NCBI GenBank assembly: GCA_965203315.1
Contig: OZ241857.1
Location: 1,120,001-1,184,000 of the forward strand
Direction of reading: 5' to 3'
Source of the DNA: Nitrosopumilus sp.
GTDB lineage: Archaea > Thermoproteota > Nitrososphaeria > Nitrososphaerales > Nitrosopumilaceae
DNA: 64,000 bases
Part shown: in pieces, positions 1,875 through 53,556 of the stretch
How the letters are laid out: the number at the start of each line of letters is the position of its first letter
How positions within the stretch are numbered: position 1 is the stretch's first letter
The notes under the pieces: generated by a model
The model's database searches: none
What the model was told of the DNA's origin: nothing
The model's input: only the letters and a program-made list of their open reading frames with translations
Made by a program: the position numbers and the translations under genes

Positions 1875-1875
1875 T

Positions 1876-2101: not shown

Positions 2102-2206
2102 ATGAATGAAAAAAGCATGGAACGATTGAGTACTATATTCAGATGTTTACTTACATGGGAGCGATAGGGCATAGATGTATATGACAAACTACTCAAAGTT
2201 CTCTAG
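2102..2206 (+). pseudogene. Possible C-terminal remnant of an IS66-like transposase
   Basis: MNEKSMERLSTIFRCLLTWER*GIDVYDKLLKVL* resembles IS66 transposase C-termini from memory; internal stop; abuts element B. Confidence 0.35.
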
Positions 2207-2387
2207 GCAACCTGATATCATACTCAGGTTTTCAACATCTGGGAACATATCTCTTCCCTTTGTCGGAATCTACAGTTGGACTGATTTGAGACTTTATCTC
2301 AAATCTACAAAATGCTTTCGAGTCAGTGCAGATACCATGACCGTACAATTTTAGAATGTTTTTATGTCATTGTGAGGATGAAACAAC

Positions 2388-3002
2388 ATGGCAATTGAGA
2401 GCAAGATGCTAGAGATCAGCGAGGTTGAAGAATATGTCATCTTGTTGGTACATGTGGACGATCAACCCATACAAGGCAGACAGAAACTCCAATTTTTGAT
2501 GTATATGTTAGGTGGGGCATACAACGAGATCAGAGAGTTGTGTGATTTTACAATAAAAGATAACGGTCCATACAGTTCAATATTGGATAATTCTCTAGAT
2601 CATCTTGTACAGATTGGTCTACTAGCAGAGCTTGATGACGCCATACAATTGACTGAAAAATGCACATCATATGCCAAAGATATCGTAGTCAAAAAAGACA
2701 AGATTCTAAAGTTTCCAGGATTAATTAATATAAAGATGTCAGATGTGTTTGAAGTACAAAAGAATATTGTAAACGACGTAACCATTCTAGAGATGCTATC
2801 ATTTATGTATTGCTTGTATCCTGACATGCAAAAGGGTTCTACAACCTACGAGAAACTAAAGCCAGATATTAAAGAACATCTATTCTCCATGGTCGCTAAA
2901 GAAAAGTTTGGTTATAAAAGAGTAGGAGGATTGCTCGGGATACCACTGCACATAATAATGAAAGAGGCGGGTAAACGCGGATTACTCAGATTAGAGCTTT
3001 GA
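2388..3002 (+). CDS. Putative antitoxin: N-terminal wHTH (YwgA/SocA-like) fused to a UPF0175-like C-terminus
   Basis: GRQKLQFLMY..NGPYSS N-terminal motifs; C-terminal KEKFGYKRVGGLLGIPLHIIMKEAGKRG; overlaps the PIN gene by 4 bp. Confidence 0.55.
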   Translation: MAIESKMLEISEVEEYVILLVHVDDQPIQGRQKLQFLMYMLGGAYNEIRELCDFTIKDNGPYSSILDNSLDHLVQIGLLAELDDAIQLTEKCTSYAKDIVVKKDKILKFPGLINIKMSDVFEVQKNIVNDVTILEMLSFMYCLYPDMQKGSTTYEKLKPDIKEHLFSMVAKEKFGYKRVGGLLGIPLHIIMKEAGKRGLLRLEL

Positions 3003-3490
3003 AGATAATAGACACATCCACATTCGTTGGAATATTCAACGAAGCGAAAAGACCAGATGTGTTTGAAGATCTTTTACAACTGGGACACATATTAGTAATT
3101 ACAAAATATGTGTTATCGGAGGTGGAGGATCCTACCACCAGTACAAACGTTAAAAGATTAATAACAGAGCGTAAACTTGAACGCTCAGAAAGAAACGCAC
3201 TTGAAGAAATTAAAGCTTTTCAACTATCTTATACAAATTTAGAGCCAGGTGAGACGGATGTAATCCTCACTTACCTAAAACTAAGCCAATACACAGACAA
3301 TATTTACTGTATTTTAGATGACGATGCTGCACGAAAGACGGCATCAAAATTAAAAATAAGATATACTGGTCTGATAGGACTATTAAAGATGTTAAAGACT
3401 CGTGGAATTAAGAGTCCAGACGAGATCCGTGAAATTTTCAAACTATTAAAAAAAGGTGGTTTCAGGATGCCAAAACATATTGATATCTAG
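2999..3490 (+). CDS. PIN-domain (DUF3368-like/VapC) toxin
   Basis: IIDTS, LEPGETDVI, LDDDAARKTA, TGLIGLL, GFRM motifs. Confidence 0.85.
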   Translation: MKIIDTSTFVGIFNEAKRPDVFEDLLQLGHILVITKYVLSEVEDPTTSTNVKRLITERKLERSERNALEEIKAFQLSYTNLEPGETDVILTYLKLSQYTDNIYCILDDDAARKTASKLKIRYTGLIGLLKMLKTRGIKSPDEIREIFKLLKKGGFRMPKHIDI

Positions 3491-3729
3491 AGTACGACGT
3501 TAGGTCGACATGTTGTTTAGGCACGAAAAATAAACTTTTCATAAAAGATCATACTAGACATCCATGACAACTCAACATCATGCCCGAAGATACAGTAGAA
3601 GTGTCTTGTCACAGTATTTGGTCACATCTAGTCTCGTAAAGTCTCAAAACTCTTCTCTGTTTATGTATATCTTGGTTCCAGTATAAGATTAAAGTATCTC
3701 ATTTGCAAGATCAAAAAGTCATACAATAT

Positions 3730-3839
3730 GATTCTTTTCAGTTTACGTGGGATGAATGGTTACATAAATCACCATAAGATTCTAGAAGGAAAAATTAAAA
3801 AAAGCCTTGCGAAATATCATCCCATGTAAATCGAAGATC
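3730..3839. repeat. MITE-like family C, copy 1
   Basis: Imperfect inverted ends (TTTACGTGGGATGA / TCATCCCATGTAAA); homologous to 5185-5263. Confidence 0.6.
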
Positions 3840-3942
3840 CTCTGTCATTGGTTTAAACTTGTACCAGAAAATGATCTTACATTTGTTCGGTCTACATAAT
3901 CAGACGGTAGAATCTCAGCGATAACACAATCAAATACTTGAT

Positions 3943-4788
3943 TCAACTATTCTTTGACTCTAGTTTTGACTCGATGACACGTCTGTATTTTTCGCCTTTG
4001 GGGTTAGAAGGATCTAGATTTATTGCAGTATTTATGGTATCTAGTGCCTCATCATAGAGTTCTAGACCATAAAACCTCGCACAAAGAGAATACAATATGT
4101 CAGGATCTTGTGGATCTAGTTTTGCCAGATACCTACAGCATTTTATTGACTCCTCGTTTTTGCCAACACGGTATAGCGCTGTTGCCTTGTTTATCAAAGT
4201 CTCTACATTATCAGGATCTGTTGATAGTTCCTCTTCAAAACACTCGAGTGCTGCATTGTACTTTTTTAGATCAAATAATAACAGTCCCTTGTTGTGTAGA
4301 GTTTGGTCATCATAGCTAGCTTGTAGAATATCATATATTGCAGGGTTTGTGATATCATCGGGGTCATTATAGGTTGGATTGTATTCTAGAGCTCTGTCAT
4401 AATAGTACAGGATCTCTTTTGCGAGGTCTGGATCTGGATCTCGGTTATATCTTTGGTGCAATACTAGTCCTTTAATACTAAACAAGGATTGATCATCTAT
4501 TCCACTATCCCTAGTCTTGTCTGCACATTCTAGAGCTTTATCATATTTGCCAGCATCATACAACATGGCTGCTTTTGTGGCAAGATATACTGGTTTATAG
4601 GCTTGACTAGCACACCGTATTGCATCATCACAGTGACCAAGTGCAACATCATGTCTTCCTCGATCGTTAAAATGCATAGCTTTGAATTGATGTGCAATTG
4701 CCACATCTGGATTTCTTGCAAGTATGTCATTACAGAGATCTAGAATCTCTTCACTCCTGCCTTCTCTTATTAGATCCGATACCTGCAT
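3943..4788 (-). CDS. Tetratricopeptide repeat protein
   Basis: Multiple TPR units (LHNKGLLLFDLKKYNAALECFEEELSTDP; YDEALDTINTAINLDPSN). Confidence 0.9.
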   Translation of the reverse strand: MQVSDLIREGRSEEILDLCNDILARNPDVAIAHQFKAMHFNDRGRHDVALGHCDDAIRCASQAYKPVYLATKAAMLYDAGKYDKALECADKTRDSGIDDQSLFSIKGLVLHQRYNRDPDPDLAKEILYYYDRALEYNPTYNDPDDITNPAIYDILQASYDDQTLHNKGLLLFDLKKYNAALECFEEELSTDPDNVETLINKATALYRVGKNEESIKCCRYLAKLDPQDPDILYSLCARFYGLELYDEALDTINTAINLDPSNPKGEKYRRVIESKLESKNS

Positions 4789-24229: not shown

Positions 24230-25761
24230 TAGTCACGAACATAATTATTTTCCGGTTCGTTGTTAAGCAATCGTGTTGCCTTTTGTTAATCGTGTAGCTC
24301 AAATCACAACGATTATCATAAAATACGAAAAAAGTCAGATAAATTTTGATTTGTTGTAAAGATATTCACGCCAATACACAAAACAATCAAAATTTTATGG
24401 TCGTCTGCATGATTTATTCTTGCACGACACAATGATTTTTGTAATTTCAAGCTATATTTTTGGCGTAATTATCTTTCTCTTAAGACAACCCATGACATTT
24501 GCGTTGCATTTCATGATTTTCATAGTTTCATCTGCATGTTTCTCTAGAGATCGTAGTGTTTTAAAGACTTTGTTGACTGGAGTATATTGTCTAAACTGTT
24601 TCCAGAGTGCTTCTGATGCATTGAGTTCAGGAACAGCAGCTGGTAATTGCACTAACTTTATGTTATTTTCTTTTGCAAATCGTCTACTTATTTGACTAGT
24701 GTGACATGATGCACCGTCAAGGATGAGTATTATTGGTTCTATCATGGGACGCATCTTTCGTATGATCTTCATAAATGCTATAAAGTCTTTAGAATTTGCT
24801 CAATGACGTATTGTATGACATATTTTTCCGTTAGTGCTGATTCCTCCAAATATTGTTATTCTCTCAGCTTTTCCTGCTACTGCTAGCATGCGTATCTTTT
24901 CACCTATCCTTGACCAACTTTTTACACGACGTTTTGTGTGGGTGTTGATGTGCATCTCATCTACTGCCATCACTAGAAATCCCATGTTGTTTAGACGTGA
25001 AATCCAAGATATGTTGGCTCTTTGGAATTTTTTTATCATCTCATCACTGGCTCGATTAGTGAAATTTACTTGGACATAGCTCTTTGCAGAGCGTCTTAGC
25101 TCTCTCATTCTGCGTCGTATCGTGCTGGGATGATATCGTACTTTTGTTATATTGAAAACCAACTCTAAAATTCTTTGTACTGTTGTGGTGCTGTCGAGTC
25201 CCAGTATGTACTCAAACATTCGGTTAGATACTTTTGGTTTCCTTCCTCGACCTGACTTGTCTTTGAGTCCCTCAATTCCTTCTTTCTGATACCGTGTAAT
25301 CCAATTAAATACGGTGCGAGGCGTAATTCCTGCTATCTCTGCAACATTTACTTGTGTGTAACTAAAATTTAGTACCGTTAGTACAACAATAATTCTTTTG
25401 TGTACGTTATGATTTGGCATGTGTTTGATGTAGCTAACCATATCCTCACATACTTGATTCATTACATATCATAAAAGATAGTAACAAATAAACATGTATA
25501 GTCAACTAAACATGATCAATTAGTTAATTATTATTGTTCAATACCAACATTAACAAAAATTTAAATTTTTTGTGCGCCATTGGACATTTTAAATTTTGGT
25601 CACTAATCATTTTTGTTTATTTCCAACCATGAACTAATAATCAGTGATTTTTGTTGTTATTGCCTCGTATGTTTTATGATCAATGTGATTTCAACGAGGA
25701 TGTTGAAAGAAATCACATAATTTGGCAAAAACGAACCGGAAAATAATTATGTTCGTGACTA
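24230..25761 (-). mobile_element. IS630-family insertion sequence, copy 1 (1532 bp)
   Basis: Perfect 32-bp TIRs TAGTCACGAACATAATTATTTTCCGGTTCGTT; TA flanks; near-identical to 46104-47636. Confidence 0.95.
24452..25462 (-). pseudogene. IS630 transposase with nonsense mutation (Ser221 TCA>TGA)
   Basis: Both ORF pieces are in the same frame; copy 2 has TCA where this copy has TGA at 24800-24802. Confidence 0.9.
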
Positions 25762-38709: not shown

Positions 38710-39123
38710 ATGGCACAAGACAGACATATCATAAAGCTGACAAAGGGTAAGACTACTGCATTCAAGAGAGAGATCTTGCAGTATATGGATCCTAATGGAT
38801 TCATCTCGTGGTCAGCAAAGGAGAAAAAGTATGTCATACTTGGAACGAGTACTCCAAAGAAGGGTCTTGTGACATGTCCCAACTGTAAGATTGGTGAACT
38901 GATGGTTGTGAGATCAATGAAGACTAGAAAGAGATTCATCGGTTGTTCCAACTTTTATAGTGGCTGTAATGCATCCTCGCCTCTGTTACAGAGAGCACGA
39001 CTGCGAGCTACAAAGAGTCCATGTGAGATATGTAAATGGCCAATCATATTATTTCGATATTCACGAAATGAAAAATGGCAAAGACGATGTTCCAATATAA
39101 AATGCAAGACTAACAAATCTTAG
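38710..39123 (+). CDS. Topoisomerase IA-type C4 zinc-finger protein
   Basis: CPNC..GELMV..RFIGCSNF..C, CEIC..CSNIKC. Confidence 0.8.
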   Translation: MAQDRHIIKLTKGKTTAFKREILQYMDPNGFISWSAKEKKYVILGTSTPKKGLVTCPNCKIGELMVVRSMKTRKRFIGCSNFYSGCNASSPLLQRARLRATKSPCEICKWPIILFRYSRNEKWQRRCSNIKCKTNKS

Positions 39124-39920
39124 TCTATCTTGTACAGACTAGATCTTCTATTCTTCAAGAGTGGTAATGCTTTACGTGTATGTATGATCTTTTTTGGATC
39201 AATTGTTACGATTCCAATCCCTTGTCGTTTCTTCATGTCGATCAGTATCTTGCCAAATGGATCTACTACCAAGCTACGACCACAATAGATATTTCCAACT
39301 TGATCAGGAGCAATTACATAACAACCGTTCTCAATCGCACGTGTCCGGGTTATTGCAAGCCAGTGCTCTTCTTTCATGTACCCCTGTACCCACGCAGACG
39401 GTACAACTAGACATTCAGAACCAGCAACAGCTAGTGTACGCGACATCTCTGGAAATCTCAAGTCATAGCATATCATAACTCCTAGTTTGCCAATAGATGT
39501 ACTGACTGGTTTTGTGATGACTGAACCAGCAACCAACTTTGTAGATTCACGAAAACCTAGTGCATCGTACAGATGGATCTTGCGATATGTAGAGACCAGT
39601 CTGCCATTCTTGTCAGATATGAATACTGTATCGTATACACGATCTTTTACTGAACTCGTTTCATAAAGAGAACCGACTACTTGAATCTTGTACTGTTTAG
39701 CAGCAGAGAGAATACTCTGAACAAAGTTACCATCTAGTGGCTCTGCCATGCTAGCAAGTTGATGAGGCGTCTGTTTTGAATCTGTATAAAACATCATAAA
39801 CTCTGGAAACGCACACAGTACTGCGCCTTGTGCAGCTGCTTTTGAGATATAATTAATGATTCGTTTGAGATTTACAGTCTTGTCACGATGAGCTTTAAAT
39901 TGAACTAGACCTACTTTCAT
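39120..39920 (-). CDS. Carbon-nitrogen hydrolase (Nit1-like)
   Basis: FPEF, YRKIHLYD, ICYDLRFPE, RAIENG; start MKVGLVQF at 39920. Confidence 0.92.
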   Translation of the reverse strand: MKVGLVQFKAHRDKTVNLKRIINYISKAAAQGAVLCAFPEFMMFYTDSKQTPHQLASMAEPLDGNFVQSILSAAKQYKIQVVGSLYETSSVKDRVYDTVFISDKNGRLVSTYRKIHLYDALGFRESTKLVAGSVITKPVSTSIGKLGVMICYDLRFPEMSRTLAVAGSECLVVPSAWVQGYMKEEHWLAITRTRAIENGCYVIAPDQVGNIYCGRSLVVDPFGKILIDMKKRQGIGIVTIDPKKIIHTRKALPLLKNRRSSLYKID

Positions 39921-40358
39921 GATATCTGTAAAGATACTAGAAATAAAAAGATTAGAGTTGAGATTATTGTGCAAAGAACCAATTCTTTTTTGGATTGTCT
40001 TGAAACACAACGATTACATGACTCTCTTTTGTCTTGAGAATCTCTACTGCAGCCTCTGTTATGGCTTTAGCATATTGACTCTTTTGCTCCTGTGTTCTAC
40101 CAGGATACATCGACACTGTAATCAGTGGCATCAAACTAGCTATATCTCAATGCCAAATGTATCTTTCTAGTAAAGAGTAATTGAAAGCAGGACGTACAGT
40201 ATAGACAACATGATACTTTTTGCATGAAAGTGATTTGATTACTGTCGAGAGGTCAATCAGATCTTTGCTAGTTTAAAATTTCTCATCTATCCGATCGTGT
40301 CTAACAGAACCAATCAAACACAACACTTAAAGTTATTATATCATACACACAACTTGTC

Positions 40359-42296
40359 ATGGGCGAATGGAGACCTGGAAATACTATTATGAAGATTCCA
40401 TTAAAAGATCATACATTAGAGATTACTGGTAAAGATATCCAAGTCTACAACTCTGAAAGAATTTTGTTGATTGTTCGGATGAGAGATATTAAAGCAATCA
40501 CCCCAAGAGAAGAAAATAGTATTTGTATATATTATGATAAAATAGGGTGTCATCCATTCAGACCAGATAGAAAAATATATGAACTCGATAAATCTCAACC
40601 CTCGTCATTGCAAGTTTGTCGTCAGATTCTTAATAAACTTGCAAATATAGGACTAGTACAAAAAAATGAGAAAGGTCTGCTGTGTATAAAACATAATGAG
40701 GAGATTTTAGGGGTATTTCCTAATGTCAGAATACATAAAAATTTTGGTGTACTCTACATTACAAGTTTAAGAATTGTTCACGAAACTGATATTGGAGTAT
40801 TGATGGATATGGACTATTATGATATGGTACATGTCAGAGAACAATCAGAAAATACTATTGAAATAATATGGGAGCATGACGTATCGTCTCTGAAAGATCC
40901 AATATTTTCTTCTAAAATAACTATGTCAAGCAAGTCTGATAGGAAAGTTGCATATTTAAGAATTACTCGGCATATTGCAGGAGTTGATTCGGTGAATAAG
41001 ATATTTTATAAATTGGATAAAGATTTTGGTTCGTTAGATTGTGACAAAATATATGACCTAGCTCGAAATAGTGATAAAGATTTTGATAAATACATATTCA
41101 TATTATCCCTGCTTTCATGTGGATATGTTTCTGATGATTTTACAGATCATGAAAAAGACCTGATTCTAGCATGTAAATTATTGGAATTTGACGAAAAACT
41201 TGTCATGACTATGACCAACGAAGAAGTTCGACAGCGTAACTTTTCTACAAGATATGAGTATTTTTCAGATCGTATAGTAAAGGAATTTGATCTAGATGAA
41301 GATAACATATTAGACTATGTTGAACGCTGTCTAAAATCAGATCAAACTCCAGATCAAACGCAACGAGATATCCAGAGCAGACATTCAGAGATGATGAATG
41401 CAATAAGATTGACTAACAAGATATATGCTGAGTCTCTACGATACTATGACAAACGAGTTATGATTTTATACAAAGAGTGGTGTAAAAGTAATCCTCTACA
41501 AAACTTTACAGACGAGTACGGCAATGAGTGGGTCAATTATCTTTTAAATAAATTAGATACACCTAAAGGACATCATCCCATTGGTGATTATTATCCTAGT
41601 TATCATAATCTAAAATCTATGTTAGAGATTAGAGACAAAAGCCGTTATACACTTACAAACTTTTCAGCTCCAGATCATATAGAACCGAGAGATATCTACA
41701 ACAACTGTTGGTATGACAAGCAACATGAAATGTGGTATGTCCAAGATAGTGACTTGGGTTATATTTTACAGAATATTGCAGACTCTAATCCAGATCGCTC
41801 AGAGGCGATGGTTGGTAGACGTGTATGGGGTTTTAAAAAAGACCGTGTGAATATGTTTTGTGGGTTTCCTAGCGTATTACAAGAGTCCATCTATAAAGAA
41901 AAAGCAATCACAATTACATCTAGTAGAGTCACAGGTCAGACAATGCGTAGATTGTTTTCTGACACTCTCAATTATATACTACCGATACTACGAGATTCGG
42001 ATATCATTCCAGAGATGGAGATCAAATATGGGAGCATGTTCTATAAAACCAGTGAGTTAAAATATATCATTAATCCTTTGGGTGACTATGACATACTTAC
42101 ACCACAGATGGCAAAGTTTAAGAATAAACGATACGACTTTGCAGATATTCCGTTAAATGAGAGAGTTAGAAGGGCACTATTTGTTTTAGAGACAGGTCTC
42201 AGATTTAATCCTCATGCCCCTTTGGAACCATCTACAATAAAGGTTCCAAATCCATATCCAAATACGTTCTATGATGAACGTTTTGAATACGTATAA
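40359..42296 (+). CDS. Hypothetical 645-aa protein, possible N-terminal PH-like domains
   Basis: Long AT-rich ORF; GVLYITSLRIVH resembles the bacterial PH/GRAM GxLxLTxxRxxF motif. Confidence 0.65.
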   Translation: MGEWRPGNTIMKIPLKDHTLEITGKDIQVYNSERILLIVRMRDIKAITPREENSICIYYDKIGCHPFRPDRKIYELDKSQPSSLQVCRQILNKLANIGLVQKNEKGLLCIKHNEEILGVFPNVRIHKNFGVLYITSLRIVHETDIGVLMDMDYYDMVHVREQSENTIEIIWEHDVSSLKDPIFSSKITMSSKSDRKVAYLRITRHIAGVDSVNKIFYKLDKDFGSLDCDKIYDLARNSDKDFDKYIFILSLLSCGYVSDDFTDHEKDLILACKLLEFDEKLVMTMTNEEVRQRNFSTRYEYFSDRIVKEFDLDEDNILDYVERCLKSDQTPDQTQRDIQSRHSEMMNAIRLTNKIYAESLRYYDKRVMILYKEWCKSNPLQNFTDEYGNEWVNYLLNKLDTPKGHHPIGDYYPSYHNLKSMLEIRDKSRYTLTNFSAPDHIEPRDIYNNCWYDKQHEMWYVQDSDLGYILQNIADSNPDRSEAMVGRRVWGFKKDRVNMFCGFPSVLQESIYKEKAITITSSRVTGQTMRRLFSDTLNYILPILRDSDIIPEMEIKYGSMFYKTSELKYIINPLGDYDILTPQMAKFKNKRYDFADIPLNERVRRALFVLETGLRFNPHAPLEPSTIKVPNPYPNTFYDERFEYV

Positions 42297-42441
42297 TCGT
42301 GGATAGAAACGAGTTTACATTTGTTAATGATTTTCTATTATACTTGGCGATTTACAACCACGACTATTGGTGAATTAGAAATCTATTGATCAATAACATT
42401 CTTGATCGATAAATGTGACGTGAATTTATTTTTGTCCACGA

Positions 42442-45138
42442 CTATGCACAAGGATTTTTATCGCCAGATGTTTCGTCACTAGTCTCGCCATATTTTGCTC
42501 TGCTTGCCTCAATGGCTCGTTCAAATCTTATTTTCTTTCTAACATCCTCACGAATTCTCTCTAGTGGCCAGTCGGGATGCTCACGTTGAACTTGTTGCAT
42601 CATTCGTACTGTCTCTTCTTGTGTATATTTTTTTGGTTGTGCGACAGAACTAGATTTTGACTTGTGAGATATAATGCCAGTACCGTCACAAATTTTACAA
42701 TCAAGAGATTGTGTGCTATTTCCAAAACAGCTATAGCATGTCTGATCAGTTGATTTTCGTTCGTCATATACTGTATCGTAGATATATTCGAAAAATCGCC
42801 ATGATTGATCAACCTCTTCTTTATCGGATACAAGTTGAATGTTATCTGATATGTCAACTATTACACAGTCGGTTGTTCCGTTATTCTTTGGTCCTCGCAA
42901 TCCTCTACCTGCCATCTGATTATACAATACATGACTAAATGTAGGACGTGCAACAAACACACAGTCTACTTTTGGTGAATCAAATCCGGTAGTAAGTATA
43001 TTGTAATTACATAAAACAGAGATCTTGCCTTGTCTAAAATCGTTTGTTATTTCATCTCTCTCTTCAGTGCTAATTTTATGATCAATCGATGCAGATTTTA
43101 TTCCATATAGCGCGTCTAACACAAATGATATAAACCGTGAATGTTCAACAGAACAAGCAAAAAGGAGAATTGATTTTTTATTTTCTTTATTTATTAATGA
43201 ACATATCTTGTTAATTATTCTGTGGTTTCTCTGTGGATCACTTCCAATTGCTTTAATAGTTTTTTCAGAGATATCATGAAATTGTTTAAACTGTTCTATC
43301 TCTTTGTCAGTCATATCTACTTTGTGTCTTGAATAATCAATAATATAGTGATGAGGAACTGCTAGAATTTTTTGTTTGATTAAATGGTCATATAGTTTTT
43401 TCATTTCTTTATCATTTGATGCTTCACTCGATCTAGGAGACTGTAGAATATTAATATATGATATGGCCATATTTGTACTCGTATTTTTACTATCGCTAAC
43501 GTATAGTTGAATTTCATACTTGCCTGGGTCTCTGAATGAAAAGTCGATATTTGCGTCTTGACCCTTTTCATTATAAACTTCTGTGCTTGGGCTATCGTGA
43601 TTATGTTTAAGAATGATAAAGTGATACTCTATAATTCTTTCATCAGTAATACTATATGATCCTTCACCATACAATCTAATCTGTTCGTTTTGGAGTCCAT
43701 TCTTCTGTACAGTAAGAGAAGCATGTGGAGGAACATCAACCTCGTCTGCAAGATCTGAAAATGATGGCCAAAGTATACGATGCTTCTTTCCAAATCTATT
43801 CAATAAACTTGTTGTACTCTTTTTGTCATCATCACCCCTAAACGGAGTTGCGGTCAAGCCAAGCAGGCATGTATGGTTTTCACTAATATCCATACCTGCT
43901 CTTCTCCGAAAGTTAAATCCCAATGCTTCTAAAACTCGATTATAGCTAATATTAGATGGGACCGCATGGTGCGCTTCATCTATAATTACCATTGCGGTGT
44001 ATTTTCCTAATTCTGGAAGAGAACCGTTATCACTATTTTTAGATATACTGTACAGTGATTGTATTGATGCCACTATTACACCATTTTGTTCATCAATATA
44101 GCCACCATCATCACCAGAGTGCTGATATAATATGTCACCGATATTTTTGGCTTCTTTATCATATATTGGATGTAGTCTTAGACTGGAATCTTTTTTGCCT
44201 TTGTGTCTAAACATATCTGCAAACGTATCGAATGCTTGTTGGCATAGTTCCTTTTTATCAACGATCCATAAAATGAATTTCTTATCTTCTTTACCCTTCT
44301 TGCCATCGTTTATCCAATCTATAAGTGTCTCAACAACCAACCTAGTCTTTCCTGCACCTGTCGGTAAAACAACAAGTGCTCTCGATGTATCTATAGTATA
44401 GTTTTCTAGCATATCAAGAATCTTGAGTCTAATACTAGATTGATAATCATGTAAGGGTTGCAACATCCCAATAGGACGTATAGTGTCTGGAAGGAGTTTG
44501 GCTTCATGACTTTGACTAAAGAAAATTTCTCTCGGAAGCTCGAGATGGTCATGATTCTTAGCCTTAAGATGTTCAATGATCGTTTTGCAAAAGCTTTTGT
44601 ATTCTTTATTAATAGTGAACTCTTTAACAAGATCACATAGATTATTTGATACAATTCGCTGTTGTGCAGTGATACACTCTTTATCAGAACAATATAACGG
44701 TTTTTTAAGCCCTAGCTTTTGAGAAAAAATGGGCTGATCCTTATTCCACTTGCTATTACATTTTTTACATGATCCAGCAGACTCTGAATTGATATTACTA
44801 ATTAAACAAGATAAAAATATATCCTTGAATGAACTATCTATTTCAATCTGTTTTTTTATGATCAAGCACAAAAAGCTTGTTCGAGTATGCTTGTTAGTGT
44901 TTACAAGAAAATTTTTACCAACATAATCAAAAAGAATTTCTGCAAAAGATTTTCTTTCTGCATGACTTTCCTTCTCATAATTTTGTAGTTGACCATAAAT
45001 AGAATCAGAGAAACGTTTATCTGCAATACTTGGAATTATATCTTTTCTAATCTCATCATCTGTCCACCAATCATTAAAAATAGATATTATCTTATCTTTG
45101 GGAGGGATTTCTGGCGGCAGATCAAAAAAATCGGTCAT
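42442..45138 (-). CDS. SF2 DEAH helicase (ResIII-like) with PKD-like insertion and C-terminal Zn finger
   Basis: LPTGAGKT, DEAHH, GLTATP, LTTGFDSP, QMAGRGLRG; CYSCFG..CKICDGTG. Confidence 0.9.
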   Translation of the reverse strand: MTDFFDLPPEIPPKDKIISIFNDWWTDDEIRKDIIPSIADKRFSDSIYGQLQNYEKESHAERKSFAEILFDYVGKNFLVNTNKHTRTSFLCLIIKKQIEIDSSFKDIFLSCLISNINSESAGSCKKCNSKWNKDQPIFSQKLGLKKPLYCSDKECITAQQRIVSNNLCDLVKEFTINKEYKSFCKTIIEHLKAKNHDHLELPREIFFSQSHEAKLLPDTIRPIGMLQPLHDYQSSIRLKILDMLENYTIDTSRALVVLPTGAGKTRLVVETLIDWINDGKKGKEDKKFILWIVDKKELCQQAFDTFADMFRHKGKKDSSLRLHPIYDKEAKNIGDILYQHSGDDGGYIDEQNGVIVASIQSLYSISKNSDNGSLPELGKYTAMVIIDEAHHAVPSNISYNRVLEALGFNFRRRAGMDISENHTCLLGLTATPFRGDDDKKSTTSLLNRFGKKHRILWPSFSDLADEVDVPPHASLTVQKNGLQNEQIRLYGEGSYSITDERIIEYHFIILKHNHDSPSTEVYNEKGQDANIDFSFRDPGKYEIQLYVSDSKNTSTNMAISYINILQSPRSSEASNDKEMKKLYDHLIKQKILAVPHHYIIDYSRHKVDMTDKEIEQFKQFHDISEKTIKAIGSDPQRNHRIINKICSLINKENKKSILLFACSVEHSRFISFVLDALYGIKSASIDHKISTEERDEITNDFRQGKISVLCNYNILTTGFDSPKVDCVFVARPTFSHVLYNQMAGRGLRGPKNNGTTDCVIVDISDNIQLVSDKEEVDQSWRFFEYIYDTVYDERKSTDQTCYSCFGNSTQSLDCKICDGTGIISHKSKSSSVAQPKKYTQEETVRMMQQVQREHPDWPLERIREDVRKKIRFERAIEASRAKYGETSDETSGDKNPCA

Positions 45139-46103
45139 AAATAGCCTAAATGTGTATCGTTATTAAAAGTTTGTAACTTTTGTTTATATACGTTGACTTG
45201 ATTACTTGAATTTAATATCTAGTACAATATGATATTCTCAAGGAAATCATAACTCTTTTAGTACATCTCTAAAAAACCCATCATTAGGATCTCGAAGCAT
45301 CCATCTATCTAATAGATTGTTAAAGTTTTGACAGCTAGTCTCTGAAATTATCGTACATGCATAACATGCAGAACCAGAATATTTCATATCTAGAGCAAGA
45401 TTCTTCCGAAGTTCTACAGGATCTCTTTCGCCACACAAGGGATCGCCCGAACAAACATCAGAGCGTCTTATGGTATTTTTGACAATCATCTCAAAATTCT
45501 TTACATTACCCAATCTAACTAGCCCACCCAAACTTCCTCCTGACGAAGCACTCGATGTATAAACAAGTATTCCATTTCGATTTTGTGGATCGGCTGTAGA
45601 ATATATTCTCTCTTTAAGCGATGCTTCATGATATCCTGAATGATTGGCAATTTCACGTATAAGCAAATGTGCAAATGTATGAAGAAATATGTAACGTGGA
45701 GAATTGAACATTTTTTTAATAATCTCTTTCTCAATATGTTTGTGTTTATCTGCATGTTCTGCATAGCTGTCTAGTAGTACATCATATCTTTCACAAACTT
45801 TTGGTCTTTGCTCCCATATTGAAAGTATGTCTTCATCAAAACTGAAAAAGATTCCTTCGCCTTTTGTTTCAATAGCAGGCAACCAATCAATAGAAGATTT
45901 GTTTCGAGAATTAAACATGTCGCTTGAGCTAATTGGTCTGAATGCAGATTTTCTATTTAGTTGTTCTTCAGTGGCAAACGGATCTGGAGAAATACCTCTA
46001 GTGAACCCTCGTAACACATTAATTGCGATCAATCTATGAAATTTCATTAAAGATTTTACATGATATTTTTCTAGTAATGACTTTTGTATGTCTAATGGTT
46101 CTA

Positions 46104-47636
46104 TAGTCACGAACATAATTATTTTCCGGTTCGTTTTTGCCAAATGATGTGATTTCTTTCAACATCCTCGTTGAAATCACATTGATCATAAAACATACGA
46201 GGCAATAACAACAAAAAATCACTGATTATTAGTTCATGGTTGGAAATAAACAAAGATGATTAGTGACCAAAATTTAAAATGTCCAATGGCGCACAAAAAA
46301 TTTAAATTTTTGTTAATGTTGGTATTGAACAATAATAATTAACTAATTGATCATGTTTAGTTGACTATACATGTTTATTTGTTACTATCTTTTATGATAT
46401 GTAATGAATCAAGTATGTGAGGATATGGTTAGCTACATCAAACACATGCCAAATCATAACGTACACAAAAGAATTATTGTTGTACTAACGGTACTAAATT
46501 TTAGTTACACACAAGTAAATGTTGCAGAGATAGCAGGAATTACGCCTCGCACCGTATTTAATTGGATTACACGGTATCAGAAAGAAGGAATTGAGGGACT
46601 CAAAGACAAGTCAGGTCGAGGAAGGAAACCAAAAGTATCTAACCGAATGTTTGAGTACATACTGGGACTCGACAGCACCACAACAGTACAAAGAATTTTA
46701 GAGTTGGTTTTCAATATAACAAAAGTACGATATCATCCCAGCACGATACGACGCAGAATGAGAGAGCTAAGACGCTCTGCAAAGAGCTATGTCCAAGTAA
46801 ATTTCACTAATCGAGCCAGTGATGAGATGATAAAAAAATTCCAAAGAGCCAACATATCTTGGATTTCACGTCTAAACAACATGGGATTTCTAGTGATGGC
46901 AGTAGATGAGATGCACATCAACACCCACACAAAACGTCGTGTAAAAAGTTGGTCAAGGATAGGTGAAAAGATACGCATGCTAGCAGTAGCAGGAAAAGCT
47001 GAGAGAATAACAATATTTGGAGGAATCAGCACTAACGGAAAAATATGTCATACAATACGTCATTCAGCAAATTCTAAAGACTTTATAGCATTTATGAAGA
47101 TCATACGAAAGATGCGTCCCATGATAGAACCAATAATACTCATCCTTGACGGTGCATCATGTCACACTAGTCAAATAAGTAGACGATTTGCAAAAGAAAA
47201 TAACATAAAGTTAGTGCAATTACCAGCTGCTGTTCCTGAACTCAATGCATCAGAAGCACTCTGGAAACAGTTTAGACAATATACTCCAGTCAACAAAGTC
47301 TTTAAAACACTACGATCTCTAGAGAAACATGCAGATGAAACTATGAAAATCATGAAATGTAACGCAAATGTCATGGGTTGTCTTAAGAGAAAGATAATTA
47401 CGCCAAAAATATAGCTTGAAATTACAAAAATCATTGTGTCGTGCAAGAATAAATCATGCAGACGACCATAAAATTTTGATTGTTTTGTGTATTGGCGTGA
47501 ATATCTTTACAACAAATCAAAATTTATCTGACTTTTTTCGTATTTTATGATAATCGTTGTGATTTGAGCTACACGATTAACAAAAGGCAACACGATTGCT
47601 TAACAACGAACCGGAAAATAATTATGTTCGTGACTA
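46104..47636 (+). mobile_element. IS630-family insertion sequence, copy 2 (1533 bp), intact
   Basis: Perfect 32-bp TIRs; TA target duplication at 46102-46103 and 47637-47638. Confidence 0.96.
46404..47414 (+). CDS. IS630 transposase (HTH + DDE)
   Basis: HTH (TVFNWITRY..GL.D..GR), DDE triad AVDEM, ILDGASCH, PELNASEALW; single ORF. Confidence 0.95.
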   Translation: MNQVCEDMVSYIKHMPNHNVHKRIIVVLTVLNFSYTQVNVAEIAGITPRTVFNWITRYQKEGIEGLKDKSGRGRKPKVSNRMFEYILGLDSTTTVQRILELVFNITKVRYHPSTIRRRMRELRRSAKSYVQVNFTNRASDEMIKKFQRANISWISRLNNMGFLVMAVDEMHINTHTKRRVKSWSRIGEKIRMLAVAGKAERITIFGGISTNGKICHTIRHSANSKDFIAFMKIIRKMRPMIEPIILILDGASCHTSQISRRFAKENNIKLVQLPAAVPELNASEALWKQFRQYTPVNKVFKTLRSLEKHADETMKIMKCNANVMGCLKRKIITPKI

Positions 47637-48685
47637 TATATCTATTCTAAGATCATGTTGCGGTCCTAATTTTTTACGTTCTGAAACTCTAATAAAATCA
47701 TCAAACTCTTGTTCTAGTGCTTTTTCCATTATAGATACATCATCATTAAGAACAACAAATTTTGATTCTAGTGTCTCTTTTATCTCTGATTCTTCACACT
47801 CTTTCAAAATTTCTTTGAAATCGTCTTTGTAAAAATCAAATATGGTGTCAGTTGTTCTATTACTCTCATAATCATCTCGAATCCTTTTACGTAATCGTCC
47901 TTCGTCTCTATCTAATAATTCATCAATTGGATTAATCCACTTTGGGATTAATAGAGCAGTTGTATTAACTGGATAATAAATCGCAGTAGAATTGACTTGT
48001 ATTCCATACACATCTTCATTACATTTTTCACTATCCTTACTTAGCCATGGCTGGTTTCCATAACAAGTATTAAAATTAAATCTTTGAAATATTTTTTTAG
48101 AAGTTGCATTTCGCATTGATCTCTCTGATCCGCAATGGAGGCATTTTACTTTATAATTAAACCAGTTGATTCCCGTACCAGATTTGAGAAATACTAATTT
48201 TGGTTCTTCGTTGGACTTTTTAGTGCATTTTGCTATATTTCCATCTAGATTTTCTGGAAAATGTGCCCACATCTCCCAAGGAAATTCAGATATGTGCCCA
48301 TTATCACATATTTGTACAAAATATGCATGAAGTAATGAGAGGTTTGAATCGTGACAATCAACACAAGCAAATCCTTTGTAACTAGATGCAACTAGTGGGT
48401 GCTTTTGTAATCGATGACAACGTTGACATAATTTCCATTGTGGAAAGGATATACAAGGTACATGAGATGTGTCATCAGATGATAACATTTGAAAGAAACC
48501 CTTTTTGAGTTGTTGAGATAAATATGGATGTGAGACTTCTCTCATGTGTTTTCTCTCTTCAGTATTTTTTGGCCAAAACTCTAATCCAAGTATCATCACA
48601 GTATCATTTTGAAGATTCACTAGGGAACCGGGTCCGAATGTAGTTATGAGCTGACTAAGTCTAAGTGTTCCTGCGTTGACCATTT

Positions 48686-51600
48686 TTATCTTCCATAGGG
48701 CTTTTGATAATATAAAGTGATTTCTGATTCGGCATCTCTCAAAGATTCCATAACAGTAAAAGCATTTTCATCATAAGTATCTCTAGAAGAGTTTATCAAA
48801 TATAGATCATTTATTTTACTCTTTTGGTATGGGTTTTTACTATACTTTAATGTCCTTTTATTTTCTTCTGCATTCTTGATGAGATCTTGCCATTTTTTAA
48901 TTATATAATCAATATCGATTTTGGTTTGTTCCAATTCTTCAGGATCAATATCTTTCACTCGGTTTAAGATTTGCTCTTTTATTTTTTCAGTAAGATTTAG
49001 TACTCTAGGAATATTGGTGCTAAATCCTGTAGGATCAGTCGATAGAATATTATCTTGTAGTCTTACTAGTGCAAGAAATATTCCATTGAGTCCTCTATCT
49101 CGAGATCTTCCAGAATATGGAGTGAGTGAGCTAGGTTCGATCAATTTATGAAATTCTGTGTGAAAATGAATAAAATTTTCAAAATATGATAAATCGCGTG
49201 GGTTAAGATATGTATAATTTGTTACAACGATCCCAGGATTATTGCGACCTATTCTTCCCGATGCTTGAATATATTCTGATGTATTCTTTGGTTGGCCATT
49301 GATTACTAATAAATTAAGTCTGTCAACGTCTACACCAACAGAGAGCATATTAGTACAAAGCAATGCATCTAGAACTCGATCGCTTCCAAGCTTTGTTTCT
49401 ACTGATTGTAAAATTTTAGGAATCTCTGTAGCTAAAACTCTTCCTGTTAATTCTTCTTTTTGTAATATTTCTGAAGCAACTTTTTTAGCATTATTCTCTC
49501 TTTGAAAAATCTTCTCTGAGTCAATTATAGAATTAATGTAGTGGGGGAGTGTGTCATCATACATACGAACTGATGCTCCTAGATTTTTAATTGTGTTATA
49601 ATAGTTAACAAGTGTATAATAAGGATCCAAATCATCATCAGAAAAATCGAATTTCTCGTTGTTAAAATAAAATGAATTTTTGTTTTCTCGGATATGTCGA
49701 ATTTTTCTTGTTATAGATGCAGCTATTCGAATACCAACATTATACCTACTAGTCGTAGTAGAACATACGCCAATGTGTAACTTGCCGGGATTTTCTTCGC
49801 TTAGTGGTAAAGATTTCGCAAAAAACGATTCTCCAAATTCAAATCCTTGTGGTGGAAAGATCTTTGTTGATTCTAAATTAAATAAATCTTTTATTTGTTC
49901 ACTAGATTTTTTCATAGTAGCCGTAGCTGTAGATGCAATGATTTTAGGTCTAATTTCTTTATATGTAGACAATAGATCTATAGTGGTTTCATATAGACCA
50001 GTTATTGTTCCTAATGGACCTACAATTAGATGTAACTCGTCTTGAATTATTAGTTCTGGAGGAGATAGTTGCCTAGAAACATTGCCAAGGATTGTTCTTG
50101 TTTGTCCATCTTTGAATTTGTGTTCTTTATGGTGTGAACATATTTCATTTTTCACATTTTTCATATTTTTTGGCCTATATCCATGTTTACGACAGAATTG
50201 AGATACATTTCCAAATAATACTGAATAACGCGGGTTCCAAGAAAGCTGTGCAAATTTATCTACAGTCGAGATAAGTAGTGATGGTCGTAAATGTATTATA
50301 TCTTCATCTATAAATACAACAGGAAGAACTCTGTCGGGATCATTTGGTTTACCAAAAAAGCATTTTTCATTGCATCTGATTTGGATTCTTCTCGGTCTTA
50401 ATTTACTTGAAGATTCATATGCATTTTCAAATTCATATGAACGTGCATCTAATCTTCGTCCACACCAGGGGCAATTTAGTAATTGCATGGGATCACCCTC
50501 TTCAATCAGCATGTTTGGATTATGTTGTCTCGATTTTATTTTAGATCTAGCGTCTGCAAAAGCGTTCGGAGTAGTTTTAACTCCAGCCCAGAGACCCACG
50601 AGGAATGGCTCGTCACCAAATTTTACGCTGTTTTTGCCTTTCATTCTTACATATTCACATGCACATAGAAGTGTCGCCGCTCGTTGAAACTGTTGTAGTG
50701 TTAGTAGACGATATGTATATCGCATAATAACGGATACACCATATCGATCTAACTCTTCATCAAACGATTTAGGATCTTTTCCTTTTAATCGCCTATATGC
50801 AAGTGTAAATGCGATAACACCGTAATACGCTTCAGTTTTACCACCACCAGTTGGAAACCATAATAGATCTACTGTTTTATGATCTTTAGAGTCCTTGTCA
50901 GTAATAGATTCAATATTTAGTAATAAAAACGCAATTTGAAACAATCTCCATTCCGGATTGATCTCTGCATCATTTGGATGATCTTCAGTAATCTTTTCGC
51001 CATTCTCGATCTTGTCTCGGTTTTGTTTTACCCATTTTGAATGAAGAATGTTTTGATACATCACTTCATTTGTAAATCTAAAGGCTTCACCTACTAATGG
51101 TTCATTCGAAATTTTGTGTATTCCATTACGAATACGTGTAAGAGCATCATTACAATTGTCAATATTTTGTTTTGGTATATTTTCACTACCAGTTATGAAG
51201 TCTCTTTCAATTGTACTGTCTGAAGTTTGTTCCCATTCTTGTAATTTATCTTTTAGACTTTTAATCCATTCTCCATATTCTTCTACAATTGGTGATAAAA
51301 TATTTTGAAATTCGTTAAAATTTGTGACTTTTGAAAGTACTTGCATGTTTAATGATTTTTTGACTTTAACTGATGGATCTATTGGTTTGATTTCTGGAAT
51401 TTTGTAGTGTGGAATGAATGTAGTTTGAATCCAATCAGTTCTATCTTCTTCTTCGTTTATGTTCCATTCCACAGAACAGTTTTTACCGTGTGCAAAATAT
51501 TTCTCGTTTCGAAATAAAAACATCATTGCCTTATCTGTTTCATCATTTATTGTTTGTTTAATTCTAGAAATATTAAGAAATATTTTATCATTATTTGATG

Positions 51601-52288
51601 ATTCTATTCGTATTTTTGGTTGAAAAACACAATCGCTATCATGAACTCTCCCACCTCTTGTTAAAGATTCATTTGTTAGAAAAACATTTAGTGTCAAATA
51701 GTTATCTTTATTTTTTTTACTTACATTATATTTTAGAAAAATTTTTTTATTGTCCTGTAATTGTATTTCATTTCTAGATAGTTTTAAATCAATTTCAATT
51801 GGATCTAAATCATAATCTACCCTCTTCCAATCTTGTTTATTTATTTTAGATTTTGTCTTTGTTTTAATATTGTCTGGGAGTTTAGATTCTTCTTGTACAT
51901 ATATACCATATGAAACCTTTGCTAGTATAGATTGTTGATCTATTGGAATATGACAGGTTATCCCTAATGAGCTTGGTTTGGTACCTATATTGACTCGCAT
52001 CTCATCTTCATTATCAGATTCCTCCGAATCTTGTAACTGAATGGAATTTTGTTGTATGTGTTCATCTTCATTAGCTTCATCATCCACTTCTAAATTTTGT
52101 TGAGTAGAGTTTTGTTGTACATGTTCATCCTCAACCGAGTTTGTCTGAATCGGGTACAAAACTCCACTCCAGTATCGATTTTTAGGATTGTCATCGAATG
52201 AAAACGATTCATCTGTCTCATGTGGACCTACTAGTTCTTTTTCAAGCTCGTCTAGAATAACATCTCGAATTATACTACCTTTATTCAT
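48686..52288 (-). CDS. drmA: DrmA-like SF2 helicase (DISARM)
   Basis: ELVGP..P..RY.SG.LYP N-terminus, PSSLGIT, WRLFQIAF, LLWFPTGGGKTEAY, MRYTYRLLTLQQFQRA, QDELHL, TNMLSVGVDVDRL, YIQASGRIGR; directly upstream of drmB. Confidence 0.9.
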   Translation of the reverse strand: MNKGSIIRDVILDELEKELVGPHETDESFSFDDNPKNRYWSGVLYPIQTNSVEDEHVQQNSTQQNLEVDDEANEDEHIQQNSIQLQDSEESDNEDEMRVNIGTKPSSLGITCHIPIDQQSILAKVSYGIYVQEESKLPDNIKTKTKSKINKQDWKRVDYDLDPIEIDLKLSRNEIQLQDNKKIFLKYNVSKKNKDNYLTLNVFLTNESLTRGGRVHDSDCVFQPKIRIESSNNDKIFLNISRIKQTINDETDKAMMFLFRNEKYFAHGKNCSVEWNINEEEDRTDWIQTTFIPHYKIPEIKPIDPSVKVKKSLNMQVLSKVTNFNEFQNILSPIVEEYGEWIKSLKDKLQEWEQTSDSTIERDFITGSENIPKQNIDNCNDALTRIRNGIHKISNEPLVGEAFRFTNEVMYQNILHSKWVKQNRDKIENGEKITEDHPNDAEINPEWRLFQIAFLLLNIESITDKDSKDHKTVDLLWFPTGGGKTEAYYGVIAFTLAYRRLKGKDPKSFDEELDRYGVSVIMRYTYRLLTLQQFQRAATLLCACEYVRMKGKNSVKFGDEPFLVGLWAGVKTTPNAFADARSKIKSRQHNPNMLIEEGDPMQLLNCPWCGRRLDARSYEFENAYESSSKLRPRRIQIRCNEKCFFGKPNDPDRVLPVVFIDEDIIHLRPSLLISTVDKFAQLSWNPRYSVLFGNVSQFCRKHGYRPKNMKNVKNEICSHHKEHKFKDGQTRTILGNVSRQLSPPELIIQDELHLIVGPLGTITGLYETTIDLLSTYKEIRPKIIASTATATMKKSSEQIKDLFNLESTKIFPPQGFEFGESFFAKSLPLSEENPGKLHIGVCSTTTSRYNVGIRIAASITRKIRHIRENKNSFYFNNEKFDFSDDDLDPYYTLVNYYNTIKNLGASVRMYDDTLPHYINSIIDSEKIFQRENNAKKVASEILQKEELTGRVLATEIPKILQSVETKLGSDRVLDALLCTNMLSVGVDVDRLNLLVINGQPKNTSEYIQASGRIGRNNPGIVVTNYTYLNPRDLSYFENFIHFHTEFHKLIEPSSLTPYSGRSRDRGLNGIFLALVRLQDNILSTDPTGFSTNIPRVLNLTEKIKEQILNRVKDIDPEELEQTKIDIDYIIKKWQDLIKNAEENKRTLKYSKNPYQKSKINDLYLINSSRDTYDENAFTVMESLRDAESEITLYYQKPYGR

Positions 52289-52442
52289 TTAGAAGGTTAT
52301 TGACACTGCTTGATAATAAACTTGTACTTGGTAGATATCACACTAGCACAATAAACGATTCAAGGTATATGAACAACGAGTTGGTCAAGTATTGACTCTA
52401 GATCATGCGAACAAATATTCTCCGCCAGCCAACTGTGACAGA

Positions 52443-53246
52443 TTACTCGTAATATGGTCTATAGCCATACCTAGTTCCATACGTAAATTCAGATTCATGT
52501 GTCTTTTTGTAGAAATATCCTGTAGCCACCCCAATTACAAATCCACCTATATGAGCCAGATATGCAACTCCGCCAGCACCAAAACCAAAGCTACCTATGA
52601 ACAGAGGAAGAAGATTCTGAAATATGAGCCAGAATGGTAGAAACCATTTTGCCTGAATATGCATCATCCTCCAAAAGAATCCCAACATCATGAATGTCAG
52701 TATCCTAGCACGTGGAAATATGATCAAATATGCGCCAAGTACACCAGAGATTGCTCCTGATGCGCCAACAGCCGGTGTCGTACTAGATGGATCTGCATAA
52801 ATGTGTGCCAAACTTGCCACTATGCCCCACATAAGATATATGCCTAGATACTTGAAGCGTCCAAACTTTTGTTCAATGTTGTCACCAAAGATCCATAGAA
52901 AGAGCAGATTACCACCAATATGTAATATTCCTCCGTGCATAAACATCGAGCTCAATAATGGAAGATATTGAATATCAGGACATGATAGTGTGAGTTGACC
53001 AAACGATAATGGTAATTGAGTTACACTAGGTTCTGTTATACAGTATGGTACTGCTCCCCACGTATAGTACATGTTTACTGTATTGACACGTATTTGGTTT
53101 CCTTCTACCATTGCAAAGTCTAGAAACTGACCACCTGTCATAAATATCTGAATCACAAATACGATCAGATTTACAGCGATGAGAGCATATGTCATTTTAG
53201 GTTTAAAGCCTGTTGGTGATGGATTCTCATCTCGTAGCGGAAACAT
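52443..53246 (-). CDS. Rhomboid intramembrane serine protease
   Basis: MFPLRDENP, SMFMHGG..H..GN, VGASGAISG, AHIGGF. Confidence 0.93.
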   Translation of the reverse strand: MFPLRDENPSPTGFKPKMTYALIAVNLIVFVIQIFMTGGQFLDFAMVEGNQIRVNTVNMYYTWGAVPYCITEPSVTQLPLSFGQLTLSCPDIQYLPLLSSMFMHGGILHIGGNLLFLWIFGDNIEQKFGRFKYLGIYLMWGIVASLAHIYADPSSTTPAVGASGAISGVLGAYLIIFPRARILTFMMLGFFWRMMHIQAKWFLPFWLIFQNLLPLFIGSFGFGAGGVAYLAHIGGFVIGVATGYFYKKTHESEFTYGTRYGYRPYYE

Positions 53247-53556
53247 AGGTTGTGTTGTAGAGTACAAAAATCGTATAATAAGATTAGTGATATTCAAACT
53301 ATGGATAAACGATACCTCAGATAGATGTTCTTGTTTTTGATAACATTGATGTATATTTTGTTAAAGATGTACAATATCAGATCGTCAATCATGGATAAGA
53401 AGAGATCTCTAACAGAACATTTGACTTGATCCAGTATATGATATCTTTTCGTAATAGTTGGAATACAAGAGGACAGACAAGGATTGATAATATTGAAATT
53501 AAGAGATAGTAGCTTATTCTCTTAGATTATTGAAACGTGTACAGAGACTTGTTGTA

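Follow-up and report, generated by a model that had tools for sequence, protein, structure and literature searches.

We analysed a window of 64,000 nucleotides (nt) from the genome of Nitrosopumilus sp., an archaeon of the ammonia-oxidising type (GCA_965203315.1, contig OZ241857.1, 1,120,001-1,184,000, or C1:1120001-1184000; the genome is G000 below), which contains drmA, drmB and a third helicase gene side by side. We conclude that this locus is probably a reduced, now inactivated copy of a DISARM-like defence module typical of this archaeal family. The conserved core of the module appears to consist of DrmA and DrmB, together a split YprA-type helicase, and a RadD-like superfamily 2 (SF2) helicase with an Ig/PKD-like insert. 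The RadD-like helicase would take the place of DrmD or DrmE, with drmC and a methyltransferase as apparently optional extras. We base this conclusion on the identities of the genes, an insertion within drmB, the synteny of the cluster and the matching phylogenies of its members, all of which we observed directly.

An insertion sequence splits drmB beside two intact helicase genes

The minus strand of positions 42442-52288 holds four open reading frames (ORFs) of 1200, 349, 298 and 898 amino acids (aa), with a 336-aa plus-strand ORF lying between the second and the third. The first, drmA (48686..52288, minus strand), is intact and encodes a 1200-aa protein that matches the PADLOC DrmA model PDLC02575 with an E value of 2.2e-233. 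Residues 7-1193 of this protein align to residues 136-1303 of the solved Serratia DrmA (7s9v_A, E 2e-152), the motifs GGGKTE, DELH and QASGRIGR can be read in its sequence, and Pfam finds Helicase_C. DrmA forms the SF2 helicase half of the YprA-like DrmAB motor. An acidic stretch at approximately residues 50-97 aligns with the Serratia trigger-loop region, the trigger loop itself having been assigned to Serratia residues 176-232 (PMC9142583).

After a 2-bp gap, drmA is followed by the first of two pieces of drmB. The N-terminal piece (47634..48683, minus strand) encodes 349 aa, all of them native, and matches positions 6-337 of the 606-position PADLOC DrmB profile PDLC02583 (E 2.3e-23). The C-terminal piece (45247..46101, minus strand) contributes 284 native residues that include the DUF1998/MZB zinc domain (PDLC02583 positions 376-603, E 1.6e-53; Pfam MZB, E 2.1e-7). 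As listed, the C-terminal ORF is 298 aa long (45247-46143), but it starts inside the end of an insertion sequence (IS) and is native only from residue 15; the stop codon of the N-terminal piece (47634-47636) comes from the IS end as well. Aligned with 16 intact DrmB proteins, the N-terminal piece ends at column 516 and the C-terminal piece starts at column 517, so that no residue is lost between them; the zinc-binding cysteines are retained. Removing the IS and one TA in silico joins ...RIDI to EPLDIQ... in frame and produces a DrmB of 633 aa. The DrmB family profile matches Serratia 7s9v_B at E 4.4e-125; both proteins are genuine homologues of their counterparts in the Serratia structure.

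The element within drmB is an IS630-family insertion sequence of 1533 bp (46104..47636, plus strand). Its transposase, the 336-aa ORF mentioned above (46404-47414, plus strand), has DDE_3 (E 1.6e-24) and helix-turn-helix domains in Pfam; its terminal inverted repeat spans 45 nt with a core of approximately 35 nt; and a duplicated TA flanks it at 46102-46103 and 47637-47638. Duplication of a TA target is the defining trait of IS630, and the element combines the transposase, inverted repeats and target duplication of the IS630/Tc1-mariner group. The G000 genome carries seven full-length copies with 99-100% identity, each matching positions 1-1533, plus one fragment. Both junctions between drmB and the IS are present in contigs of three sequencing runs from three studies, and no contig of these runs bridges an empty drmB site. 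The insertion looks recent and clean, and it is the state of the sampled strain. With drmB split by the IS, no DrmB of full length can be produced.

A second copy of the element lies elsewhere in the window (24230-25761), between ORFs and with TA on both sides. At 1532 bp it is 1 base shorter, and its transposase frame is split into ORFs of 106 and 220 aa. The X6 contigs, which showed only IS-like sequence, short bits and a joint that 'skips 1988' with 20-nt sides, were taken to represent another organism or a repeat.

The third gene (42442..45138, minus strand) encodes an 898-aa RadD-like SF2 ATPase with ResIII (E 8.9e-21) and Helicase_C (E 1.5e-17) domains and the motif QMAGRGLRGP. Among 22 orthologues there is no variation in the Walker A, DEAH, TAT and QxxGRGxR columns, and motifs I, II (DEAH), III and VI accompany a RadD-like fold. 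We searched with an AlphaFold model of the protein, whose mean predicted local distance difference test score (pLDDT) is 74.8, using Foldseek; the best eight PDB chains were E. coli RadD (8h5y, 7r7j, 6jde; E 1.3e-15 to 7e-13, 19-20% identity over approximately 550 columns), followed by Type ISP enzymes, XPB and others. Template modelling (TM) scores to RadD are low (0.25-0.40), and the likeness is therefore limited to the core. Around this core, the protein has a helical plus zinc-ribbon N-domain (residues 1-200), an Ig/PKD-like beta-sandwich insert at approximately residues 475-565, for which the PKD (PKD_4) match is weak, and a zinc ribbon at the C-terminus. Folded alone, the N-domain reached a pLDDT of 60.7 and had no Foldseek match at E <= 0.001; residues 1-225 returned no usable ESM Atlas match, and no family match was found for the N-domain.

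Approximately 40 metagenomic proteins with 49-65% identity share the whole architecture of this helicase. All of them carry just the name 'DEAD/DEAH box helicase', and those whose source is named belong to Thaumarchaeota or Nitrosopumilaceae. Because 885-898-aa forms occur among them, the length of 898 aa reflects no truncation. Homologues of approximately 590 aa are called 'DNA repair protein RadD' by one source. Matches to PADLOC models are generic, the best being PbeA (E 1.9e-12, C-terminal helicase domain only), together with type IV and type I restriction helicase domains. The only DrmD match is at E 0.004 (13.4 bits) and none of the PADLOC DrmE models matches; among the helicases of 15 relatives, none matches DrmD or DrmE at E <= 1e-5. 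A predicted complex of DrmB (638 aa) with the N-domain fragment (residues 1-235) of the helicase, both from the closest relative of the window, G036, scored 0.01 with a mark of 0.32 and gave no verdict either way. A second, shorter RadD-like helicase is encoded elsewhere in G000 (C1:402064-403281, frame of approximately 538 aa); it is 29-34% identical to the 898-aa protein, and no DrmA adjoins it.

An initial annotation of this DNA, made by a model from the letters and their ORFs, had named a 1200-aa DrmA-like helicase and an 898-aa third helicase that is ResIII-like and not SNF2, and both assignments agree with our searches. It had also recognised a DUF1998-type DrmB 2 bp after drmA, which is correct, but had listed as one gene what proves to be two pieces with an IS between them.

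Synteny, phylogeny and the genes that come and go

We searched 401 genomes of the archaeal family with the helicase and DrmA as queries. At E <= 1e-60 the helicase had matches in 23 genomes, and DrmA was patchily distributed, with matches in 32 genomes at E <= 1e-30. From these we examined 16 loci with a full-length close DrmA (G036 and fifteen others), or 17 with the window. G297, represented by contig-end fragments, was left out, as were 14 weaker DrmA-like matches (E 1e-30 to 1e-67, frames of approximately 1100-2200 aa) that are probably other YprA-like helicases. A helicase with ResIII and Helicase_C domains (Pfam) lies within the drmAB cluster at all 17 loci. At 15 of them, window included, it is on the same strand and directly after drmB or drmC; it is convergent in G363 and follows one opposite-strand ORF in G112.

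For the bacterial side, we collected 78 loci by a contig search with generic Walker A and DEAH patterns, which returned mostly unrelated helicases, and screened them by tblastn. DrmA and DrmB occur near the helicase at only four of the 78 (L022, L023, L024 and L026), which are the best four of the bacterial matches and all actinobacterial. At these loci the helicase forms the C-terminal part of a protein of approximately 1540 aa whose N-terminus matches Tiamat (TmtA) models, and the gene order is the Tiamat-like/helicase fusion, a UvrD/GajB-like gene, DrmA and DrmB. Neither DrmA nor DrmB lies near L021, a thaumarchaeal helicase with 31% identity.

We built quick maximum-likelihood trees for DrmA, with 19 rows that exclude the split drmA of G149, and for the helicase, with 20 rows; they agree at their major groupings. 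In both trees the archaeal loci of a GHKL ATPase type cluster with those from actinobacteria, G363 joins the pair of G000 and G036, and G082, G248, G112 and G140 branch basally in the remaining group. A tight, well-supported clade unites G131 (with G149), G125, G204, G099, G076 and G393; its members, six species in the DrmA tree and seven in the helicase tree from five genera as labelled, all lack drmC. The agreement between the two trees argues for long co-inheritance of the putative motors.

These data bear on the possibility that the 898-aa helicase is an independent gene that came to lie beside drmAB by chance. Its lack of a strong match to any PADLOC family, the 108-bp gap that separates it from drmB and its opposite orientation in G363 would all fit such an origin. 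However, the helicase adjoins drmAB at every one of the family loci, occurs as a fusion partner within the same cluster in actinobacteria and has a tree congruent with that of DrmA. Synteny and trees essentially refute a chance association, which we regard as highly improbable.

The likeness of the third helicase to E. coli RadD, a repair protein, raises another possibility: that the cluster is a DNA-repair module in which a YprA/MrfA-like helicase and a RadD-like repair ATPase act on damaged or stalled DNA. The YprA family does include the repair helicase MrfA (10.1101/2025.09.15.676423). Yet DrmA and DrmB fall with the DISARM models and the DISARM structure and not with MrfA, and their distribution across the family is patchy. 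The cluster sits on an AT-rich island whose insertion site is a closed junction in most congeners, relatives add phospholipase D (PLD) nucleases, DrmMII-type methylases and GHKL ATPases, and disruption by the IS is tolerated in a genome that is 99.98% complete. Taken together, these observations make a repair module quite improbable.

A PLDc_2/drmC gene, which encodes a PLD nuclease, is present at eight of the 17 loci (G036, G363, G140, G082, G248, G327, G088 and G194) and was not found at the other nine (the window, G112, G099, G076, G393, G125, G204, G131 and G149). In the window, a 108-bp spacer between drmB and the helicase gene (45139..45246, minus strand) occupies the position of drmC in G036, and a DNA alignment with G036 revealed no drmC remnant in it. 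With the G036 DrmC as query, nothing matched in the whole G000 genome at E <= 0.01; there is no PLD gene within the window, and PF13091 occurs in G000 only in two proteins of approximately 1100 aa, far from the locus. We also looked for a hidden nuclease in the N- and C-terminal tails of helicases from drmC-less loci (Pfam E <= 0.05) and found only HNH_repeat and zinc-ribbon matches. DISARM operons are reported often to lack DrmC, which is described as dispensable (PMC9142583).

Methyltransferase genes show a related pattern. The window contains no match to PF01555, PF02384 or PF00145, and the ORFs of the island lack methyltransferase domains. Searching the loci for ORFs of at least 110 aa with Pfam matches at E <= 1e-6, over at most 20 kb, we found a DNA methyltransferase within the fetched DNA of eight of the 17. 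The gene lies directly upstream and on the same strand in G248 and G363, is of the C5 DrmMII type in G327, G088 and G194, is part of or beside a separate restriction-modification (R-M) pair in G036 and G082, and is 4 kb away in G112. No methyltransferase was found at seven loci with at least 20 kb of context (the window, G140, G393, G125, G204, G131 and G149) or on the 9-10-kb contigs of G099 and G076, which hold only the three genes. A methyltransferase is therefore nearby at 7/8 drmC-bearing versus 1/9 drmC-less loci (G112), a pattern that is suggestive only, because the loci are relatives of one another. Put differently, the bare triad of drmA, drmB and helicase occurs without drmC at nine of the 17 loci, and at eight of those nine the fetched DNA contains no methyltransferase. 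That the bare triad persists is shown by the six to seven species of the drmC-less clade.

Outside the window, G000 has unusually many methyltransferase genes, with 26 PF01555 and 8 PF02384 matches, most of them packed into approximately 300 kb of contig 1 (C1 ~430-730 kb); no C5 methylase (PF00145) was found in the genome. We considered a 509-aa N6 methylase of G036 as a DISARM component and found this doubtful, a short-chain dehydrogenase gene separating it from the helicase.

The two nearest relatives of the window, G036 and G363, have drmC in between or after drmB and a methyltransferase nearby. In the DrmA tree, G363, with drmC, branches outside a pair formed by G000, without it, and G036, with it (SH-aLRT, an approximate likelihood-ratio support, 100 and 99). 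Loss of drmC in the lineage of the window is the simpler reading, because the window nests in a drmC-bearing group.

The initial annotation had proposed instead that the three genes of the window constitute an intact, self-sufficient and possibly undescribed minimal DrmAB antiviral system, either free of methylation or served by a host methyltransferase in trans. Much in the data agrees with it: no drmC, DrmD, DrmE or methyltransferase gene is present at the locus, the third helicase is syntenic with drmAB both in the family and in actinobacteria, drmA and the helicase gene are intact with every ATPase motif present, the many methyltransferases encoded elsewhere in G000 could act in trans, and the bare triad recurs, including in the supported clade described above. 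However, the 1533-bp IS in drmB refutes the proposal for this copy as it stands, no contig from the three studies bridges an empty site, and the nearest relatives possess drmC together with a nearby methyltransferase. We consider an intact minimal system in the window unlikely. A decayed ordinary DISARM had been the expected alternative if homologous loci always carried drmC or a methyltransferase, which is true of G036 and G363 and false for the family as a whole. The suggestion that the system is undescribed still holds for the literature searched: in full texts, with subscription journals and bioRxiv supplements excluded, we found no description of the archaeal triad and no named subtype that fits it.

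Several points weigh against our own reading of the window as a reduced and inactivated copy of a family-typical module. The count of 17 out of 17 for synteny holds only for loci with a full-length close DrmA, because the weaker matches and G297 were left out, and the methyltransferase counts depend on the thresholds and the span of DNA given above. Both trees come from quick searches, SH-aLRT is their sole measure of support, and the composition of many rows is deviant. A gain of drmC in G036 and G363 could replace its loss in the window at the cost of only one additional step, in a comparison of three taxa. Because rare variants are lost from contigs, part of the population may still have an intact drmB allele. 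Finally, defence activity, a physical partnership among the proteins and the mode of killing are what we infer for the module.

The island and the surroundings of related loci

The cluster lies on an AT-rich island of 12.4 kb (40011..52442) between a nitrilase (CN_hydrolase) gene at 39120-40010 and a rhomboid gene at 52443-53297, both identified with Pfam, in a genome of 2.47 Mb and 7 contigs. GC content is 0.28-0.37 inside the island (40-52.4 kb) and 0.37-0.44 in the flanks. Among 17 same-genus genomes in which both flanking genes were found, the gap between them is <600 bp in ten, 1.3-1.7 kb in three and 5 kb in one; in the remaining three (G014, G015 and G016) the genes are far apart or on different contigs. 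The island thus represents an insertion at a variable spot, because the nitrilase/rhomboid junction is closed in most congeners. The AT-rich island between these genes had been noted in the initial annotation, although its listed content lacked a 645-aa ORF.

This ORF, ORF645 (40359..42296, plus strand), is cargo of the island outside the DrmAB module. It has no family assignment, matching nothing in Pfam or PADLOC. Two paralogues lie elsewhere in G000, at C1:1306146-1308050 and C6:46802-48745, and pairwise identities among the three family members (645-695 aa) are 46-49%. The family occurs in 15 of the 401 genomes and is away from drmA wherever checked. We considered ORF645 as a fourth component of the module and rejected it: its homologues in G248, G327 and G140 are far from drmA, and it has no match at any fetched DrmA locus.

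A defence context is also suggested by the neighbours of the relatives' loci, which include R-M pairs, HEPN/NTase, TIR and GmrSD genes and a HamB-like helicase. In five genomes from several genera (G036, G140, G082, G112 and G248; loci L019, L155, L163, L164 and L167), the gene next to the helicase end of the module encodes a short-chain dehydrogenase, and in two of the five a metallo-beta-lactamase-fold gene comes after it. This suggests a shared insertion hot spot other than that of the window. A variant operon in G327, G088 and G194 (L165, L166 and L168) consists of a GHKL ATPase, DrmA, DrmB, DrmC and a short ResIII helicase of 614-756 aa, accompanied by a C5 methylase of the DrmMII type; the GHKL ATPase is 729-731 aa long and has two HATPase domains. 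In G149 (L162), two ORFs of 647 and 529 aa make up a split drmA. Directly upstream of it lies a HamB-like helicase (1150-4686) of 1178 aa whose C-terminus carries a HIRAN domain, and a GmrSD-like gene lies downstream.

Proposed action and comparison with known systems

Under our reading, the lineage of the window would have lost drmC first, and a still-active IS630-family element would later have jumped into a TA site in drmB. In intact relatives, judging by homology to the Serratia structure, DrmAB would be held off by the acidic trigger loop. It would load on single-stranded DNA with a free 5' end in invading DNA and translocate with ATP. The RadD-like ATPase may serve as a second motor or as a reader of DNA structure, helping to stall or expose the invading DNA. 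With no nuclease of its own, such a system may stall replication or recruit host nucleases.

More tentatively, DrmA, DrmB and the RadD-like helicase could together be an old, self-sufficient antiviral class with neither a methyltransferase nor a nuclease of its own, in which two co-evolving motors would halt invading DNA after recognising its structure. PLD, methylase and GHKL/Tiamat-like modules would then have been gained and shed repeatedly in archaea and actinobacteria, and the window would be a stripped copy that an IS has just knocked out. This wider scenario is possible, and we offer it with low confidence.

DISARM is still poorly understood: DrmC is dispensable, and the roles of DrmD and DrmE and the way in which self-DNA is spared are unclear. 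An archaeal class that exists both with and without PLD and methylase genes would provide a ready comparison set for asking which parts are needed. A RadD-like motor that appears to co-evolve with DrmAB in place of DrmD or DrmE would also tie the archaeal loci to the Tiamat-like/DrmAB neighbourhood of actinobacteria. For G000 itself, the system is dead, killed by an IS with seven near-identical copies.

Measured against DISARM as a whole, the window has DrmA and, directly after it, an IS-interrupted DrmB; DrmC, an operon methyltransferase (DrmMI, N6-adenine, or DrmMII, C5-cytosine) and DrmD or DrmE are not there. The system-level rules of DefenseFinder and PADLOC would probably not assign a locus to DISARM on two core genes. 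The published definition comprises drmABC, a methyltransferase and drmD or drmE (PMC11529989), with DrmAB as the core complex (PMC9142583).

Class 1 DISARM of Serratia sp. SCBI consists of DrmD, DrmMI, DrmA, DrmB, DrmC and DrmMII, and its DrmAB structure is known (7s9v/7s9w). The window resembles it in having homologous DrmA and DrmB, the same split of the helicase over two genes, an acidic loop at the trigger-loop position and a second SF2 motor in the operon. It differs in that this motor is RadD-like (ResIII) and not the SNF2 protein DrmD, that DrmMI, DrmMII and DrmC are absent, and that drmB is broken by the IS.

Class 2, known from Bacillus paralicheniformis, comprises DrmE, DrmA, DrmB, DrmC and DrmMII (PMC11529989). 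The DrmA-DrmB core is common to both, and archaeal loci of the variant operon (G327, G088 and G194) likewise encode DrmC together with a C5 methylase of the DrmMII type (E 5e-113 to 2.2e-201). Unlike class 2, however, neither the window nor the 15 relatives scanned has a DrmE match at E <= 1e-5, the window is without a methylase or PLD gene, and the variant operons carry the GHKL ATPase and a ResIII helicase instead.

A 2026 preprint describes a Tiamat-like 'Type III-C neighbourhood' in which a helicase lies beside DrmA and DrmB (10.64898/2026.09.30.754977). As described there, the helicase is of the same ResIII/RadD-like kind as that of the window, and our four actinobacterial loci fit the description. 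In that neighbourhood the helicase and a GHL (Tiamat-like) ATPase form one fusion protein, accompanied by GajB and a cytosine methyltransferase, whereas the helicase of the window lacks a GHL domain and has no GajB or methylase gene nearby. E. coli RadD shares with the window protein an SF2 core with zinc-binding elements; unlike RadD, a lone housekeeping repair gene, the window protein adds a 200-aa N-domain and the Ig/PKD-like insert.

ARMADA, Druantia and Dpd, like the window, combine a YprA-like helicase that has a DUF1998 domain with extra helicases (10.1101/2025.09.15.676423). In ARMADA the YprA helicase is unsplit and is joined by a BrxHII-like helicase and a PglX-like methylase, the latter two not found in the window (10.1101/2025.09.15.676423). 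The same study (Bell et al. 2025, 10.1101/2025.09.15.676423) finds 'many uncharacterized DISARM-like classes' within the DISARM-like clade, and in its Table S1 the helicases of Nitrososphaeria and Nitrosopumilus appear only as 'DISARM-like helicase'.

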